A program made the position numbers and the translations under genes. Under the pieces are notes generated by a model, which saw nothing but the letters and a program-made list of their open reading frames with translations, was not told the DNA's origin and ran no database searches. Of a stretch of DNA of 37,142 nt, positions 18,769 through 37,130 are shown in pieces (position 1 is the stretch's first letter; each line of letters starts with the position of its first letter). The DNA is from a virus. The stretch covers positions 1-37,142 of IMG/VR virus record IMGVR_UViG_3300038428_000132; one strand, given 5' to 3'.

Positions 18769-19160
18769 TTGCTACTCCAATGATTAAACAATCGAAGAGA
18801 CCATTCTCTAAACTCTGTCTCCGTCATGTCATTTTTTGCGGTGTTACATTTTGCACAGCAAGGACGAAGGTTGCCCTGCACATAACCAATATCAGAATTG
18901 ATACGATCAAGACCATACCCCGTCTCAGGAAGCTGTCCTCCACAATAATAACACGGTTGATTAACTAATATAATATATTCTTAGTAAACAATTGTAAGAA
19001 CAAGGTTATTACGCTTAGCGCTGCCTTTCAGCGTTTGATAACGGCCATAAGTTGTTCTACAACGTTTTCGATTTGTTAATCTAGCCGACTCACGATAGCG
19101 TTCTGGATATTTTTTACGCCATCTTTGACCAGAAGTTAATCCATCGTTAATTTTACGCAC
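18765..19160 (-). pseudogene. HNH-type endonuclease, family B, with in-frame TAA at codon 60
   Basis: Not in track. GTG start overlaps the groEL stop; PCYYCGG...GYGLDRINSDIGYVQGNLRPCCAKCNTAKN; TAA at 18983-18981; TGA overlaps the groES ATG. Confidence 0.85.
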
Positions 19161-20760
19161 CCTTTGCCTCCAAATTAACGATGCTTCCTGCCACAGTCAA
19201 AAATGTGCCAGCAAGGCTAGCTGCATTGATAAGTGCTTGTTTGACAACCTTTGAAGCATCCATTATGCCTTTGTCCCGCATGTCAACAACTTCGCCAGAC
19301 AAAGCATCAAAGCCAATTGAATCTGCCCGCCCTTTAAGGCACTTCATCGTATCCTTGACATTGTAACCGCCGTTTTCCAAAATCTGCTTTAATGGAGCCT
19401 CAAGAGCATGAAAAACAATGCCTATTCCAACAAGCTCTTCATTGTGTAGTTTTTCACCCGAGAAATTTACACTCTCTTGACAACGTAAAAGAGCAATTCC
19501 TCCTCCCGGAACTGTGCCGTCTTCCTGAGCACATTTCACACTCAACACGGCGTCTTCCGTTCTATCTCTTTTTTCCTTAGCCTCAGATTCCGTTGGAGCG
19601 CCTATTTTAATAACGGCCACACCTCCATCCAACTTCGCTAACCTCTCAGCCAGAATTTCCTTGTCGTAAGGATTCTCCGTCGAAGCAATGGCGCTGGAAA
19701 GCGATTCGATTCGCTGCGCCAACTCATTGCCCTTGCTCTTACCCTTGATGATCGTGGTATTAGTTCGCGTCACCACGACGCGCTCGGCCTGTCCAAGGAC
19801 ACTCAAGTCGCATTTAGACAGATCAAGACCAAGTTCTTCTACAATACTAATGCCACCTGTAAAGGCTGCTAAGTCAGAAAGAAAATCTCTCCGGCGCTCA
19901 CCATACCAAGGTGCTGTTACGACGCACGAGCGCAGCACAGCGCGATTCTGTAATAACAGCGCCATTACCGGCAATTCAAATTCCTCTGATAGAATGAGGA
20001 TCGAACGGCCTGCCTGAGCTACTGCGGCGAGCAAAGGCTCTATCTTTCCAATGCTCTGAATGCGGCGCTCGTGCAAGAGTATAAACGGATTTTCAAGAAC
20101 GCACTCATTTCGTGAAAAATCCGTAATGAAATCAGGATGCCGAAACCCGGAATCAAATCTCATCCCGGCAGAAAACTCGATGTGCGTCTTGTCTGTGCGC
20201 GAACTATCGACGCTAACGATGCCGTTCTTACCAGCCATTTGTAAGGCTTCAGTTACAATCTTAGCAACTTCTTCATCGCCATTCGCCGCGATGCGGGCTA
20301 CATCCAGACCCATGCCGTCATAGCGCGTTGACATCTGCGCGAGTTGTTGAACTATCTTCGCAGTAGCCTTGTCAATCCCTGACCGTAGGAAAACCGGACT
20401 GGCTCCTTTTTCCAGCGCCTTCATCCCCTCAGAAATAATTGCCTGAGAAAGTATGACGCTGGCAGTGGTGCCATCACCCGCCTCTTGCACTGTACGAAGG
20501 GCTGCTTCTCGAATAAGATCACAGCCTAAATTTTCTGTAGCATTTGGAAGTGAAATGGCTCTCGCAACAGACACCCCATCTTTTGTAGTCACTGGTGACA
20601 GCTTTACAACTTCTTTCGTAGCAGGATTAGTCACAACCCGCTCAACTACAATGCATCTACCTTTAGGACCAATAGTAGCCGAGACTAGCCTAGCTACTGC
20701 ATTGATGCCAATGAGCATCCTATTACGTGCATCTTTTCCAAACGTCAATTCCTTCGCCAC
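19153..20760 (-). CDS. groEL: Chaperonin GroEL/Cpn60
   Basis: AKELTFG, TKDGVSVA, AGDGTTA, RTEDA, PGGGIAL motifs; GTG start after GGAG; no GGM tail. Confidence 0.95.
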   Translation of the reverse strand: MAKELTFGKDARNRMLIGINAVARLVSATIGPKGRCIVVERVVTNPATKEVVKLSPVTTKDGVSVARAISLPNATENLGCDLIREAALRTVQEAGDGTTASVILSQAIISEGMKALEKGASPVFLRSGIDKATAKIVQQLAQMSTRYDGMGLDVARIAANGDEEVAKIVTEALQMAGKNGIVSVDSSRTDKTHIEFSAGMRFDSGFRHPDFITDFSRNECVLENPFILLHERRIQSIGKIEPLLAAVAQAGRSILILSEEFELPVMALLLQNRAVLRSCVVTAPWYGERRRDFLSDLAAFTGGISIVEELGLDLSKCDLSVLGQAERVVVTRTNTTIIKGKSKGNELAQRIESLSSAIASTENPYDKEILAERLAKLDGGVAVIKIGAPTESEAKEKRDRTEDAVLSVKCAQEDGTVPGGGIALLRCQESVNFSGEKLHNEELVGIGIVFHALEAPLKQILENGGYNVKDTMKCLKGRADSIGFDALSGEVVDMRDKGIMDASKVVKQALINAASLAGTFLTVAGSIVNLEAKGA

Positions 20761-20842
20761 GAACGCACACTCCAAGGAAAGTTGGGGAGCCTCTGCCCAT
20801 CTGAGAGAGGCTCACCGTTTGGTAACTGGTTAACAGGCGATC

Positions 20843-22584: not shown

Positions 22585-22660
22585 TGGTGGACCCGACAGG
22601 CATCGAACCTGCAACCCCCTGCGTGCAAGGCAGGTGCTCTCCCGATTAAGCTACAAGCCC
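22585..22660 (-). tRNA. tRNA-Ala(TGC)
   Basis: 76 nt; anticodon arm CCTGC-CTTGCAC-GCAGG; GTTCGA T-loop; G3-U70; encoded CCA. Confidence 0.95.
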
Positions 22661-23476: not shown

Positions 23477-23551
23477 CAGGGCTTAGCCAAGCGGTATGGC
23501 GCGTGGCTTGGGACCACGAGGTCGGGGGTTCGACTCCCTCAGCCCTGACCA
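23477..23551 (+). tRNA. tRNA-Pro(TGG)
   Basis: Acceptor CAGGGCT/AGCCCTG, A73, CCA; anticodon arm CGTGG-CTTGGGA-CCACG. Confidence 0.95.
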
Positions 23552-23895: not shown

Positions 23896-23970
23896 GTGGG
23901 CGTGGTATAGAGGTTGTGCCTCAGTCTTCCAAACTGAAGAGGCCGGGTTCGAGTCCCGCCACACGCTCCA
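23896..23970 (+). tRNA. tRNA-Gly(TCC), structurally degenerate
   Basis: Anticodon arm TCAGT-CTTCCAA-ACTGA, TTCGAGT loop, U73-CCA; two acceptor-stem mismatches and a C-C pair in the T-stem. Confidence 0.8.
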
Positions 23971-30879: not shown

Positions 30880-30983
30880 TTACATGACGGTGTGATTATC
30901 TCTGCTTTAGTAGCCGGTACAATTGCAACGGCGGGCGGCTGCAATTCATGGCGTGCGAAACGCTAAGAAGTAACGGAGACTTT

Positions 30984-31178
30984 ATGAAAAACAAACCAGT
31001 TCTTAGTCCAGAAGAAAAGATGCAAATTCAACGACTTAACATGATGCTGCGCAGTAAATTTAGCGCAAAAAATACCATGCGCGAGATTGGAATAGTCAGT
31101 GCTTCCGTTAAGTTGTTGGAAAACGTACAGGCGCGTGAGATCACGCGAACATTGAGCGCAATTCGAACCAATAATTAG
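30984..31178 (+). CDS. Small basic hypothetical protein
   Basis: Start moved to MKNKP (GGAG RBS); 64 aa. Confidence 0.6.
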   Translation: MKNKPVLSPEEKMQIQRLNMMLRSKFSAKNTMREIGIVSASVKLLENVQAREITRTLSAIRTNN

Positions 31179-31208: not shown

Positions 31209-31267
31209 CGCAGACGGCACCCGCATACTGTGCGGGTCTAATGCGGCTAGCCGGTCCGAAGCCCGGC
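31209..31267 (+). ncRNA. Twister ribozyme 1 (permuted, type-P5-like)
   Basis: CGCA-GA-CGG..P1 ACCCGCA/TGCGGGT..UAA-UGCG-GC-UA-GCCGG-UCCG-AA-GC-CCGG; T1 CGG/CCG; predicted cut 31239/31240. Confidence 0.9.
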
Positions 31268-31291
31268 AATTTAAAACCGCTGAGGTGGCCC

Positions 31292-31615
31292 GTGTATACT
31301 ACAATCAATTTCAAAACGAAAAAGCAACTCAAGGAAGCCGTGAAAAACTGGAACGATCATTTGAAAGCAATCGCCGATCCGGTGTTTGCTCTTACTGTTG
31401 GCCCCGAAGCTGCACTGGCGCGTCCTGTGCGCATCTATCAGCCCGGACCATTTGGTGGCAACGAACCAACTGAAGGCACGACTTGCTTGGAAGGTCCACA
31501 CTATTGGGCAGCCCGGCCGCAACCACCAACGTATAGCGGAACGTATCCTCCTGCGGCGCATACGTGGTATGCGCAGGCCGAATTGAAGAACGGCATCGTG
31601 GTGAAAGTGAGGTAG
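31292..31615 (+). CDS. Small phage protein
   Basis: GTG start after GAGGTG; MYTTINFKTKKQLKEAV...YQPGPFG...LEGPHY...HTWYA. Confidence 0.75.
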   Translation: MYTTINFKTKKQLKEAVKNWNDHLKAIADPVFALTVGPEAALARPVRIYQPGPFGGNEPTEGTTCLEGPHYWAARPQPPTYSGTYPPAAHTWYAQAELKNGIVVKVR

Positions 31616-31686
31616 CCTATGCCCGGCCACGATTGTATCGCGGTCGATTTGGACCCGATGGCACGCTGTTGGAGATTCGGAAATAG

Positions 31687-31767
31687 CGCAGAGTCAAGGC
31701 GGAGTCCGGCATACAAGATGTTGCGGTATGCCCCGCCTTAATGCGGCAGGCCGGTGACAAGCCCGGC
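31687..31767 (+). ncRNA. Twister ribozyme 2
   Basis: P1 AGGCGG/CCGCCT; T1 GUC(A)/(U)GAC; predicted cut 31739/31740. Confidence 0.92.
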
Positions 31768-31787
31768 CACGTATCATAGGGTGATTT

Positions 31788-31913
31788 ATGAAAACAGATA
31801 CAACAAAGGATACATGGAGAACGAAAGCATTTCCCTGCCAGTATCCACGTTTCGATGAAGCAACCCTGAGAGGCGAAATATTTGCAGAGACAGGGAAGAA
31901 ATATACTAAGTAA
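31788..31913 (+). CDS. 41-aa hypothetical protein
   Basis: AGGGTGA RBS; MKTDTTKDTWRTKAFPCQYPRFDEATLRGEIFAETGKKYTK; fills the gap between ribozymes 2 and 3. Confidence 0.55.
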   Translation: MKTDTTKDTWRTKAFPCQYPRFDEATLRGEIFAETGKKYTK

Positions 31914-31924
31914 GTCATAGAGTT

Positions 31925-32010
31925 CGCAGAGTGACGCACCTTAGCCTCTACTACTAGGCGTATAATTCATGGCGGGTGCGATAATGCGGCAAGCCGGTTA
32001 CAAGCCCGGC
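31925..32010 (+). ncRNA. Twister ribozyme 3
   Basis: P1 CGCACC/GGTGCG; T1 GUG(A)/(U)UAC; predicted cut 31982/31983. Confidence 0.9.
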
Positions 32011-32026
32011 TACGCGGAGGTGATAC

Positions 32027-32347
32027 ATGGTTACAAGGATACCAAATAAGTACAAAACTGTGGCAGATGAAGTAATTGCTGCATATACTGAAGAAACACG
32101 TAATCTTCATTTTCGTGCATTTCAAAGTGTGCCGTCCGACGTGGCAGTTAAGATCATGGCAAAGGCTGTCCCGGATGGCTATAACAACTTTACAGCGGAC
32201 TTGTTAGGACGCATCAAAGGCGACGTTTTGCTTGCCCGCGAATACAGTGTGTGTGTTTATGTCGAACCAAACTCTATTGAAGAACACGAGCTTGGGGAAG
32301 ATGAATACAACATAATTGGTGGAAAACTTCGTCTTTGGTGGGATTAG
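32027..32347 (+). CDS. Hypothetical protein
   Basis: 106 aa; GGAGGTGA RBS directly after ribozyme 3. Confidence 0.75.
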   Translation: MVTRIPNKYKTVADEVIAAYTEETRNLHFRAFQSVPSDVAVKIMAKAVPDGYNNFTADLLGRIKGDVLLAREYSVCVYVEPNSIEEHELGEDEYNIIGGKLRLWWD

Positions 32348-32351
32348 CATT

Positions 32352-32433
32352 CGCAGAACACAGTATCTATACACTGGCTAGCGTGTCCTAGTCTATGAGT
32401 GTTGTAATGCGGCAGGCCGGTTGTAAGCCCGGC
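32352..32433 (+). ncRNA. Twister ribozyme 4
   Basis: Long G-U-rich P1 with an inner hairpin; T1 ACA/UGU; predicted cut 32405/32406. Confidence 0.88.
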
Positions 32434-32446
32434 AATTAGGAGGAAC

Positions 32447-33079
32447 ATGACTAAGAAACAAGCTGAAAAGATTGTAGGAAAGATTTACGTTAACAATAAG
32501 TTGCCGTGCGGGTCATACACACTGCCCTGTGATTCCTGCCATGTGGGAAAAACTCTCCGCAGTAATCCTAACTCGCCTTGCGCTCATTGCTATGCAAGGA
32601 AGGGCTATGCAAAAGCTTTTGCAAAAAATGTTGATCCTTTTCGTGCTTTCAAATTGAAAGCACTTCAGCATCCACAATGGCAAGAGGCTATGGTTACAAT
32701 GTTAAAAGGCAAGTCGTACTTTAGATGGCATGATGCAGGCGATCTTCAGAGCGTAGCACATCTACGGCAGATAATTTCTCTTGTTAATGCAACCCCTTGG
32801 TGCCAGCATTGGATGCCCACCAAGGAGTTTAATGTAGTGAGAAAATTTCTTGCTGAGGGTGGAACAATCCCTACTAACCTGACAATCCGGTTGTCAGCTT
32901 ATATCATAGATCATGGTTGCAAGCCAAAGGGCCTTACTCAATTAACAACCTCTACTGTACAGCGTTATTCCGCTCCTATCGGCTTTGCATGTCCGGCTCC
33001 CAATCAAGGTGGACGTTGTGATACATGCCGTGCTTGCTGGTCAAACACAGTTAAGAATGTATCATATTATATCCATTAA
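32447..33079 (+). CDS. GP88-like Cys-rich protein
   Basis: LPCDSC...CAHCYA, FRWHDAGDLQS, HWMPTKE, NLTIRLSA, CPA...CDTCRACW. Confidence 0.75.
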   Translation: MTKKQAEKIVGKIYVNNKLPCGSYTLPCDSCHVGKTLRSNPNSPCAHCYARKGYAKAFAKNVDPFRAFKLKALQHPQWQEAMVTMLKGKSYFRWHDAGDLQSVAHLRQIISLVNATPWCQHWMPTKEFNVVRKFLAEGGTIPTNLTIRLSAYIIDHGCKPKGLTQLTTSTVQRYSAPIGFACPAPNQGGRCDTCRACWSNTVKNVSYYIH

Positions 33080-33138
33080 CGCAGACGGAACCCGCATACT
33101 GTGCGGGTTTAATGCGGCAGGCCGGTTGTAAGCCCGGC
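33080..33138 (+). ncRNA. Twister ribozyme 5 (chimeric, T1 mismatched)
   Basis: 5-prime 39 nt are 37/39 identical to copy 1; P4 part identical to copies 4 and 6; T1 CGG vs UGU cannot pair; begins right after the upstream stop codon. Confidence 0.8.
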
Positions 33139-33161
33139 CACGCTCTTCATGAGAGGGTACA

Positions 33162-33395
33162 ATGAATTATATCATAAACTTTTTGGACTGGCTTCACGAG
33201 ACTTTCCCAATCGAGAATACAATCATAACATTCTTAGACTGGGTACAAACATGGTTGTGGCGCTATCATCATCATTTGTTTACAACCAATGATTTTTTTA
33301 ATGACTGTATTACAGTTCAAGGATGGCTAACAGTATTAGTTGTAGGTTTATCATTCTATGAATTGTACATCGTCTTTTTAAAACCTCGCAAGTAA
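33162..33395 (+). CDS. Small membrane protein
   Basis: 77 aa; GAGAGGG RBS; hydrophobic C-terminal segment. Confidence 0.6.
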   Translation: MNYIINFLDWLHETFPIENTIITFLDWVQTWLWRYHHHLFTTNDFFNDCITVQGWLTVLVVGLSFYELYIVFLKPRK

Positions 33396-33476
33396 CGCAG
33401 AACACAGCATTCATACACCGGCTAGCGTGTCCTAGTCTATGAGTGTTGTAATGCGGCAGGCCGGTTGTAAGCCCGG
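33396..33476 (+). ncRNA. Twister ribozyme 6
   Basis: P1 CAGCATTCATA/TATGAGTGTTG; T1 ACA/UGU; 77/81 nt identical to copy 4; predicted cut 33449/33450. Confidence 0.9.
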
Positions 33477-33493: not shown

Positions 33494-33712
33494 ATGTTGA
33501 AACCTAATCTGACTGCAAAGGATTTTCGGAACGTGAGCTTGAGCGATGTGGAGCCTTTCGTTGAAAGGATTCCAGCCGGTCAAGATCGAACGGTGTTGTT
33601 TCCTTCCTACGAAATAGCGCAGAAAAACAAGGCATTCTATATGCCCCGCACTGTTCAAGAGGGACGTGCGTTTCAATTCAAACAATTGGCGGCTAGCGCC
33701 GGGAGAGCTTAA
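33494..33712 (+). CDS. Hypothetical protein
   Basis: 72 aa; GAGGAGG RBS after ribozyme 6. Confidence 0.7.
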   Translation: MLKPNLTAKDFRNVSLSDVEPFVERIPAGQDRTVLFPSYEIAQKNKAFYMPRTVQEGRAFQFKQLAASAGRA

Positions 33713-34215
33713 TGAGAAGTTTATATGCAGTTCCTTGTAAACTTGAATGCAATTGCAAGCATGGCCTGCACGATCACAATGAGTGCAAATGCAGCGCACG
33801 CTGCAAAGTGTGCAACACCGTTTTCTTTTACCGCGATGCCAAGCATGTGTTGCTGCATGGCGTCGTTGAGACTCAGGACTTTGATGATGCGTGGTACTTC
33901 GTTTGCCCGTACTGTGGCAGCGATGAAATGGCCCTGTGGGACAACTCCGGCATGGCCGCCGAGATGTTTCCGAATGGATGCACCTGCCAGAACAACGGCG
34001 ACTATTGCGATTATTGCAGCATCCTGATTCAGGAGCCTCGCATCTGCCAGCACTGCTACACCCGCATCGTGGCTGGTTATTTCTATGACGGCCTGTGGTA
34101 CGAGGATTTCAACACGTCGGAAGATGACGCATACTGCAATCCGTGCGCAGAACGTGTGATGGCTCGCGCTGAAGAGCATTACTACGATTTGCATGATTGC
34201 ATGTTGAACGAGTAA
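33712..34215 (+). CDS. Cys-rich multi-Zn-finger protein
   Basis: Several CxxC/CxC motifs (CKVC, CPYC, CDYC, CQHC, CNPC); TAATG-coupled. Confidence 0.7.
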   Translation: MRSLYAVPCKLECNCKHGLHDHNECKCSARCKVCNTVFFYRDAKHVLLHGVVETQDFDDAWYFVCPYCGSDEMALWDNSGMAAEMFPNGCTCQNNGDYCDYCSILIQEPRICQHCYTRIVAGYFYDGLWYEDFNTSEDDAYCNPCAERVMARAEEHYYDLHDCMLNE

Positions 34216-36068: not shown

Positions 36069-37130
36069 ATGCAGGTGATGTTGGCAACACAGACAAGCAA
36101 TGTGAAAAAGTTACGCTACCCGGTCTATGCCTCTGTGAAGCTGGACGGGATTCGTGCGTTTATTCACAAGGAAGATAATACTGCCTCGGTTGTTATGAGT
36201 CGCAGTATGAATCTGATTCCGAACGAATTTGTGCAGGAAAAACTTCGCAGGGCAGAGCCGGGTCTGGACGGAGAGCTTATTTACGGCGACCCGAATGCAA
36301 AGGATTGCTACTGCCTCACGCTTTCCATCGTCATGAGTGAACATGATTCCCGTGGCGCAGACGTTGACTTTTACGTATTCGACAAGGTAGAGGACAAGCC
36401 TTTCGAGCAACGGTACGAAGATTATTGCTATGCTGTTACTGCTATGGGTCCGTTGTCTTTCAGTGTTAAAGCTGTCCGCCAGACCCTCGTATTCTGTGTG
36501 GCTGAGTTGCGGGCCTTCGAGAAAGACGTTCTAGCCCATGGCGGCGAGGGCGTGATGGTCCGGGACCCGCAAGGTCCGTACAAGCATGGCCGGTCAACAG
36601 AGCGGGAAGGCTGGCTGCTAAAGGTGAAGAGGTTTGTTGACGCAGACGCCGAGGTCTATGATTTTCTACCCCTCTATCACAACGCCAATGCTGCGTTCAA
36701 GAACGCCCTCGGCCATACGAAGAGGTCCCTGTCCAAAGCTGGTAAGGTGCCTCTGCCTTTGCTTGGCCGGTTTCTAGTACGTGATTGCAAGAGCAAAGTC
36801 GAGTTCGAGGTCGGCGTCGGATTCACGATGCGCCAGCGACGCAAGATGTGGAAAGAACTGCAAGCGAACCCACTGGCCTACAACGGTCGCATCATGAAGT
36901 ACAAACACTTTCCACATGGTGCCAAGGTTAAACCACGTCATGCAATCTTCCTTGGCTGGCGTAGCAAGTTGGACATGGACGCTCCTAGCCCTACCGGACG
37001 TTTGAACGTGCCCGGTCCGGCTATTCAGAACATTCCTATCGAGCGAGTGCCGCTTGAAAATTTGGCTCACGCTCCCGAGCGTCCGAAACGAAATGTGGCG
37101 TTCACTACGCGCAGGAAGCCAATCGGCTAG
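36069..37130 (+). CDS. ATP-dependent DNA ligase
   Basis: Motif I KLDGIR, LDGELI, FYVFD, EGVMVR, WLLKVKRF; OB domain with EVGVGF and PRHAIFLGWR. Confidence 0.92.
   Translation: MQVMLATQTSNVKKLRYPVYASVKLDGIRAFIHKEDNTASVVMSRSMNLIPNEFVQEKLRRAEPGLDGELIYGDPNAKDCYCLTLSIVMSEHDSRGADVDFYVFDKVEDKPFEQRYEDYCYAVTAMGPLSFSVKAVRQTLVFCVAELRAFEKDVLAHGGEGVMVRDPQGPYKHGRSTEREGWLLKVKRFVDADAEVYDFLPLYHNANAAFKNALGHTKRSLSKAGKVPLPLLGRFLVRDCKSKVEFEVGVGFTMRQRRKMWKELQANPLAYNGRIMKYKHFPHGAKVKPRHAIFLGWRSKLDMDAPSPTGRLNVPGPAIQNIPIERVPLENLAHAPERPKRNVAFTTRRKPIG

Follow-up and report, generated by a model that had tools for sequence, protein, structure and literature searches.

Results

The window analysed here is a 37,142-nt fragment of an uncultivated phage (IMG/VR record IMGVR_UViG_3300038428_000132, positions 1 to 37,142), estimated to be ~39% complete, in which six type-P5 twister ribozymes, all on the plus strand, occupy six consecutive gene spacers between positions 31209 and 33476. 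Terminase, portal, major head protein, GroEL and a PAPS-reductase-like gene are encoded on the minus strand of the window, while the ribozymes lie in a plus-strand run of small genes that extends from ~30.9 kb up to an ATP-dependent DNA ligase gene (36069-37130).

The array begins behind a gene of 76 aa (30948-31178) that has no match in Pfam or PHROG. Ribozyme 1 (31209-31266) separates it from gene 2 (31292-31615, 107 aa), which starts with a GTG codon at 31292 after the Shine-Dalgarno sequence GAGGTGG and ends with the stop codon TAG at 31613-31615. Ribozyme 2 (31687-31766) precedes gene 3 (31788-31913, 41 aa), ribozyme 3 (31925-32009) precedes gene 4 (32027-32347, 106 aa), ribozyme 4 (32352-32432) precedes gene 5 (32447-33079, 210 aa), ribozyme 5 (33080-33137) precedes gene 6 (33162-33395, 77 aa) and ribozyme 6 (33396-33476) precedes gene 7 (33494-33712, 72 aa). 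All these genes are on the plus strand; the 76-aa gene and genes 3, 4, 6 and 7 were taken from the list of open reading frames (ORFs), and a search in viral contigs revealed no relatives of gene 4. The following gene (33712-34215) overlaps the stop codon of gene 7, and this boundary carries no ribozyme.

The distances from the stop codon to the ribozyme are 30, 71, 11, 4, 0 and 0 nt for copies 1 to 6, and those from the ribozyme to the next start codon are 25, 21, 17, 14, 24 and 17 nt, each of these start codons being preceded by a Shine-Dalgarno-like sequence. An earlier sequence-only reading of this DNA had given 0-71 nt for the first distance, as measured here, and 13-24 nt for the second, which differs from our 14-25 nt only in the way of counting. 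Same-strand ribozymes flanking single genes are thus present in this phage DNA, with six consecutive spacers occupied. A terminator scan found no plus-strand terminators between the genes of the array; the sole plus-strand terminator-like site within it is weak and lies inside gene 2, and the overall frequency of such sites does not exceed that in shuffled sequences. Together with the common strand and the short spacers, the missing terminators would be indirect support for a shared transcript.

Ribozyme identification and structure

The window was searched with Rfam cmscan, in which the Twister-P5 model RF02684 (clan CL00120) has a gathering threshold of 37.6 bits. Five of the six copies reached this threshold with 38.5-55.2 bits (copy 1, 52.2; copy 2, 43.0; copy 3, 52.3; copy 5, 55.2; copy 6, 38.5), while copy 4 remained below it with 32.1 bits and an E value of 0.0046. 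At E ≤ 1 the window gave no match to any further ribozyme family. A 28-nt 3' core shared by the copies has exactly six matches in the window, all on the plus strand, and none in 100 shuffles. The sequence-only reading had placed one twister in each of six consecutive spacers and had named the Infernal search with the Rfam model as a check. Both the Rfam matches, five above and one below the threshold, and the core count of six versus zero bear it out, and copies 1, 2, 3, 5 and 6 pass the check while copy 4 does not.

All six copies, and no further site in the window, fit a strict descriptor consisting of CGCA (P2a), GA, a 3-nt T1a, the P1 hairpin, UAA, UGCG (P2b), GC (T2a), NN, GCCGG (P4a), U, a 3-nt T1b, AA, GC (T2b) and CCGG (P4b). 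The UAA cut site, the G-A step after P2a and the AA and GC of the P4 loop are invariant in all six; P2 and P4 are kept throughout, and so is the T2 pseudoknot (GC with GC). For each isolated element the minimum-free-energy (MFE) fold contains the stems P2, P1 and P4 in the P5-permuted order. Descriptor and fold agree in six of six copies with a twister that is opened between P4 and P2, as had been proposed, and the assignment of P2, the G after P2, the U/A cut site, T1, T2 and P4 was right as well: the G of the GA step is the base that had been called catalytic, and the U-A step of UAA is the scissile site. The parse with the descriptor predicts cuts at U31239/A31240, 31739/31740, 31982/31983, 32405/32406 and 33449/33450 for copies 1, 2, 3, 4 and 6, and these coincide with the sites listed previously; the would-be site of copy 5 (33110/33111) had been left out of that list without a reason.

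The T1 pseudoknot is fully paired in copies 1 (CGG/CCG), 2 (GUC/GAC), 3 (GUG/UAC), 4 and 6 (both ACA/UGU), so that four pair types occur. Since the Rfam model does not score pseudoknots, this pairing is independent evidence. Among 78 unique relatives from other loci T1 is fully paired in 69, compared to a mean of 38.6 and a maximum of 45 when the partners were shuffled. These relatives contain 13 fully paired T1 types, 12 of them in arrays of at least four copies together with the loci G007 and G020, which have two or three copies. The covariation claimed earlier therefore stands for the four pair types but not for copy 5, which has the highest bit score (55.2), yet faces CGG with UGU and forms only one wobble pair of three. 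We also considered whether a diversity of T1 sequences keeps neighbouring ribozymes orthogonal; this is not a general rule, as other arrays mostly use one T1.

In line with the sequence-only reading, the P1 hairpins belong to four unrelated sequence families (copies 1/5, 2, 3 and 4/6), all of which pair. The P1 region comprises 21 nt in copy 1, 43 nt in copy 2, 48 nt in copy 3 and 44 nt in copies 4 and 6; the 43-48 nt of the latter four are long compared to a median of 18 nt in 89 relatives. The MFE of the isolated P1 ranges from -9.3 to -18.5 kcal/mol, although in copy 4 the fold behind this value is other than the canonical P1 pairing. At four P1 positions copy 4 deviates from copy 6, so that Watson-Crick pairs become wobbles or, in one case, a C·A mismatch. 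The low score of copy 4 is explained by this weakened P1, while its core is intact. In assays of natural twister variants P1 imperfections were tolerated (PMC11662667).

Duplicated copies resemble each other exactly up to the ribozyme borders, and the flanks are only ~30% identical, so that the ribozyme is a discrete module. Since the P1 sequences are unrelated, the cores are conserved and the similarity ends at the ribozyme borders, the comparison of the copies points to selection that would act on the ribozyme and not on a repeat.

Two further observations concern the ends of the elements. The base following the final CCGG (positions 31267, 31767, 32010, 32433, 33138 and 33477) is C in five of the six window copies and in 67 of 89 relatives. 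This base pairs with the G that precedes P4a, and P4 thereby gains a fifth pair that reaches one base past the Rfam model. Inspection of the flanks by eye showed no P5 closing stem joining the 5' to the 3' side, and no pairing computation was made for it.

Related arrays in other genomes

The twister core is present in at least 100 IMG/VR stretches, from which 80 loci were taken and their whole records scanned with Rfam. Arrays were found in six other phage records, with six (G005), seven (G012), five (G041), eight (G061), five (G063) and four (G065) copies, and eight further records contain two or three twister-P5 copies each. Twister-P5 is the only ribozyme class that the scans detected inside these arrays. 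The ribozymes again lie between small ORFs of the same strand, often 0-5 nt past the stop codon and with the next start 15-35 nt behind them. The cargo has no relation to the genes of the window and includes a UvrD-type helicase; one array ends ahead of a C5 DNA methylase. G005, G012 and G041 come from related phages, each with its own subset of the shared cassettes, and they suggest that the ribozyme and the ribosome-binding site (RBS) may move as a unit. A repeated leader follows the ribozymes in these three phages (loci L011, L107 and L108) and ends with CGGGAGTAGAACG or GGAGAGTAGTTCCA before the ATG.

Gene 5, the largest gene within the array, encodes a Cys-rich protein with a match to the Pfam family GP88 (PF17338, E 2.7e-23) and to phrog_1392. 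The GP88 family is of unknown function and widespread in uncultivated phages. Homologues of gene 5 were found at 29 loci with 29-43% identity over the best segment, and none of the 19 loci scanned has a ribozyme beside the homologue. Since these homologues lack ribozymes and the cargo of the other arrays is unrelated, the ribozymes go with the design of the operon and not with particular genes.

A blastn search of one ribozyme against cultured phages gave chance-level matches only, and the window phage has no DNA match among cultured phages. Its closest terminase is that of Tunturiibacter phage Tunturi_3 with 31.6% identity, and the genome of Tunturi_3 contains no twister-P5. The distant terminase match to a phage of Acidobacteriota, together with the abundance of the core in Acidobacteriota genomes, hints at a possible soil Acidobacteriota host. 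The same core occurs in 71 bacterial contigs (L148-L218), many of them from Acidobacteriota, Clostridia and Dehalococcoidia, and the cultured strains among them, which may be of use as experimental systems, include Desulfosporosinus sp. I2 (two copies), Caproicibacter fermentans EA1 and Proteiniclasticum sediminis BAD-10. Elsewhere in the window there are a full-length GroEL-type chaperonin gene (19153-20775, minus strand; phrog_5725, E 8e-123) and three tRNA genes at 22588-22660 (minus strand), 23477-23548 and 23896-23967 (both plus strand).

Discussion

We consider it likely that the six twisters act in cis to cut one co-transcribed run of small genes into gene-sized mRNAs, in agreement with the mechanism put forward in the sequence-only reading. 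The early timing and the protein-independent action that this reading assumed are plausible. Motif identity, the intact catalytic core, covariation, placement and recurrence were observed directly, and beyond these we infer co-transcription, cleavage in vivo and an effect on the fate of the mRNAs. In the process that we envisage, the T1 and T2 pseudoknots would close the active site as soon as RNA polymerase has completed the P4 loop, and self-cleavage would occur co-transcriptionally between the U and the first A of UAA. In the P5 permutation the cut would separate the P1 hairpin on its 5' side from P4 on its 3' side. The upstream mRNA would then end with P2a, the P1 hairpin and a single U with a 2',3'-cyclic phosphate, and it would have a 3' untranslated region (UTR) of 31-124 nt, while the downstream mRNA would start with a 5'-OH and the P4 hairpin, followed by its own Shine-Dalgarno sequence and start codon, with a 5' UTR of 41-52 nt. 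The expected products of ~500, 243, 423, 705 and 339 nt would have a hairpin at both ends, and the stability and translation of the genes would be uncoupled from those of their neighbours.

For copy 5 a lower activity is expected. In a high-throughput study of natural twisters two or three imperfections in PK2, as the T1 pseudoknot is named there, lowered the mean fraction cleaved from 0.76 to 0.55 and 0.28, respectively, and PK2 was described as stacking between P1 and P2 (PMC11662667). Due to its mismatched T1 and in view of these data, copy 5 is probably weakened but not necessarily dead. It would probably cut poorly, and a 1044-nt RNA may remain the main form in which genes 5 and 6 are present.

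Several points weigh against dicing of a polycistronic RNA. Copy 4 misses the Rfam threshold, and with the T1 mismatch of copy 5 the number of well-supported cuts falls to five. The search for promoters identified none, and the promoter-like matches are only in modest excess (16 compared to a shuffle mean of 9.7, standard deviation 2.5). The accessibility of the Shine-Dalgarno sequences predicted by folding is about the same before and after cleavage, so that the folds reveal no evident benefit for translation. Where the host has RNase J1, decay can be triggered by a 5'-OH end, as is the case for the product of the glmS ribozyme. Whether the 5'-OH stabilises or destabilises a message depends on the RNases of the host. 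The nearly equal predicted accessibility also speaks against an unmasking of the RBS by cleavage, and for this reason we favour insulation of the genes and protection of the mRNA ends as the putative benefit. Another candidate function, a downstream mimic of P2a that pairs with the freed P2b to form a 5'-terminal stem, is seen for some window copies; in 89 relatives it shows no enrichment (18 compared to 4-19 in control windows), and it was rejected.

The ribozymes could also cleave in order to lower or time expression and thereby give different protein levels along the operon, either because exposed ends trigger decay or because the cleavage rate responds to ionic conditions or to the translation of the gene upstream. 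The stop codons 0 nt from copies 5 and 6 and 4 nt before copy 4 would fit such a role, as a terminating ribosome would sit on P2a and T1a and could prevent folding in the case of delayed cleavage. The copies are not alike in the strength of P1 and the quality of T1, which would give graded efficiencies, and a review from 2019 treats different stabilities or translation efficiencies as an open possibility (PMC6765202). However, the new ends both carry hairpins that look protective, no switch or ligand-binding element can be seen, and folding shows no alternative structure that depends on cleavage. Moreover, the engineered analogue discussed below (PMC9872166) raised expression and did not lower it. 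We therefore regard a primary role in lowering or timing expression as unlikely.

The copies have also left traces of recombination. The 5' half of copy 5 matches copy 1 at 29 of 31 positions and its 3' half matches copies 4 and 6 at 27 of 27, and since the halves correspond to different copies, copy 5 is a recombinant between them. This chimera shows that recombination between copies, with the crossover inside the ribozyme, occurs within the array. Copy 6 is a near-copy of copy 4 (50 of 54 and 27 of 27 positions). An orphan 11-mer, GCCCGGCCACG, lies on the plus strand at 31621-31631, 5 nt past the stop codon TAG of gene 2, and consists of the last 6 nt (GCCCGG) of ribozymes 2 and 5 and the next 5 nt (CCACG). 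It has five matches with at most one mismatch compared to 0.62 expected, three of the others being located at the ends of ribozymes 2, 3 and 5, and it is probably the relic of a lost or recombined ribozyme copy.

Such traces would be expected if the elements mattered mainly as DNA joints for cassette exchange by homologous recombination, cleavage being secondary or neutral. The crossover in copy 5 and the orphan ribozyme tail fit this idea, as do the end of similarity exactly at the ribozyme borders, the different subsets of inter-ribozyme cassettes in G005, G012 and G041 and the GP88 homologues of other phages that have no ribozymes. A joint, however, needs neither conserved catalytic nucleotides nor T1 covariation, nor P1 pairing that persists under sequence change. 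Conserved catalysis, T1 covariation and kept P1 pairing point to probable selection on the RNA, and recombination is better seen as a side effect, so that a role mainly as DNA joints appears quite improbable to us. Inactive relics or selfish twister-like repeats without a role for the phage are the least probable explanation, since the persistence of the defective copy 5 and the low score of copy 4 stand against a complete core with compensated pseudoknots in five of six copies, a uniform strand and position, and the same layout in independent lineages.

If the transcript is diced by the twisters, the excised units would carry a 5'-OH and a 2',3'-cyclic phosphate and would be substrates for RtcB-type ligases, so that their circularisation is conceivable. 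As each unit is bounded by two ribozyme halves of one family whose P2 and T2 strands are identical, these could re-pair and draw the ends close to each other, as in the engineered Tornado system. Inspection by hand showed a full match of the T1 halves (ACA/UGU) only in the unit bounded by cuts 5 and 6 or, with an inactive copy 5, in that from cut 4 to cut 6; at the other combinations 0-2 of the three positions pair. We judge it very improbable that circularisation yields translatable circular phage mRNAs.

Comparison with known systems

The elements belong to the type-P5 twisters, a class described by Roth et al. (2014) and reviewed in PMC5408937. With this class (RF02684) the window copies share the order P2a, P1 hairpin, UAA, P2b, T2, P4 and T1 with ends between P4 and P2, as well as the conserved nucleotides, and five of the six exceed the threshold of its model. 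They differ from their relatives by the long P1 of four copies (43-48 nt compared to a median of 18 nt) and by the one mismatched T1.

For the arrangement, the closest natural counterpart are the hammerhead ribozymes in prophages, where multiple copies lie on either side of one gene or of a short block of genes (Perreault et al. 2011; PMC3088659). They were proposed to process transcripts to mRNAs of operon length or of one gene, and native polycistronic constructs of ~2 kb were cleaved completely in vitro (Perreault et al. 2011; PMC3088659). In both cases several ribozymes of a self-cleaving class bracket phage genes on the same strand. Unlike the prophage examples, the window contains twisters, and all six consecutive spacers hold this one class. 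Twisters and hammerheads are found clustered around the same genes, within a few kilobases (PMC5408937), and processing of polycistronic transcripts was suggested for both (PMC6765202), while the role of bacterial and phage twisters is still called speculative (PMC5408937; PMC6765202).

Our literature searches found no paper on natural arrays that consist only of twisters at every gene boundary. The sequence-only reading, which knew of no described gene-by-gene array, needs correction on this point, given the clustered phage hammerheads of Perreault et al. (2011), the reviews that extend the idea to twisters, and the same layout in six other records. The array is a testable example of an arrangement known in phages since 2011 and not a new class of elements or a new mechanism. 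As a test bed it offers five well-formed copies and one natural chimera with a T1 mismatch, and a single template of 2.9 kb predicts a simple ladder of fragments. The recurrence in several unrelated uncultivated phages would make the array, if its copies cleave as we infer, part of a general expression strategy, as opposed to an oddity of a single genome.

The closest engineered counterpart is pRAP, in which twisters between cistrons produce monocistronic mRNAs in E. coli (PMC9872166). As in the window, the cistrons are separated by twisters that precede the ribosome-binding site. In contrast to the natural array, pRAP is synthetic and its twister cuts at its own 5' end, so that a separate upstream stem-loop is needed to protect the 3' ends; upstream cistrons were expressed only when this stem-loop had been added just before the cut site (PMC9872166). 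The natural P5 permutation would instead leave its own P1 hairpin on the upstream product. This comparison suggests why the P5 permutation may suit the task, since a hairpin would be left on both products of each cut.

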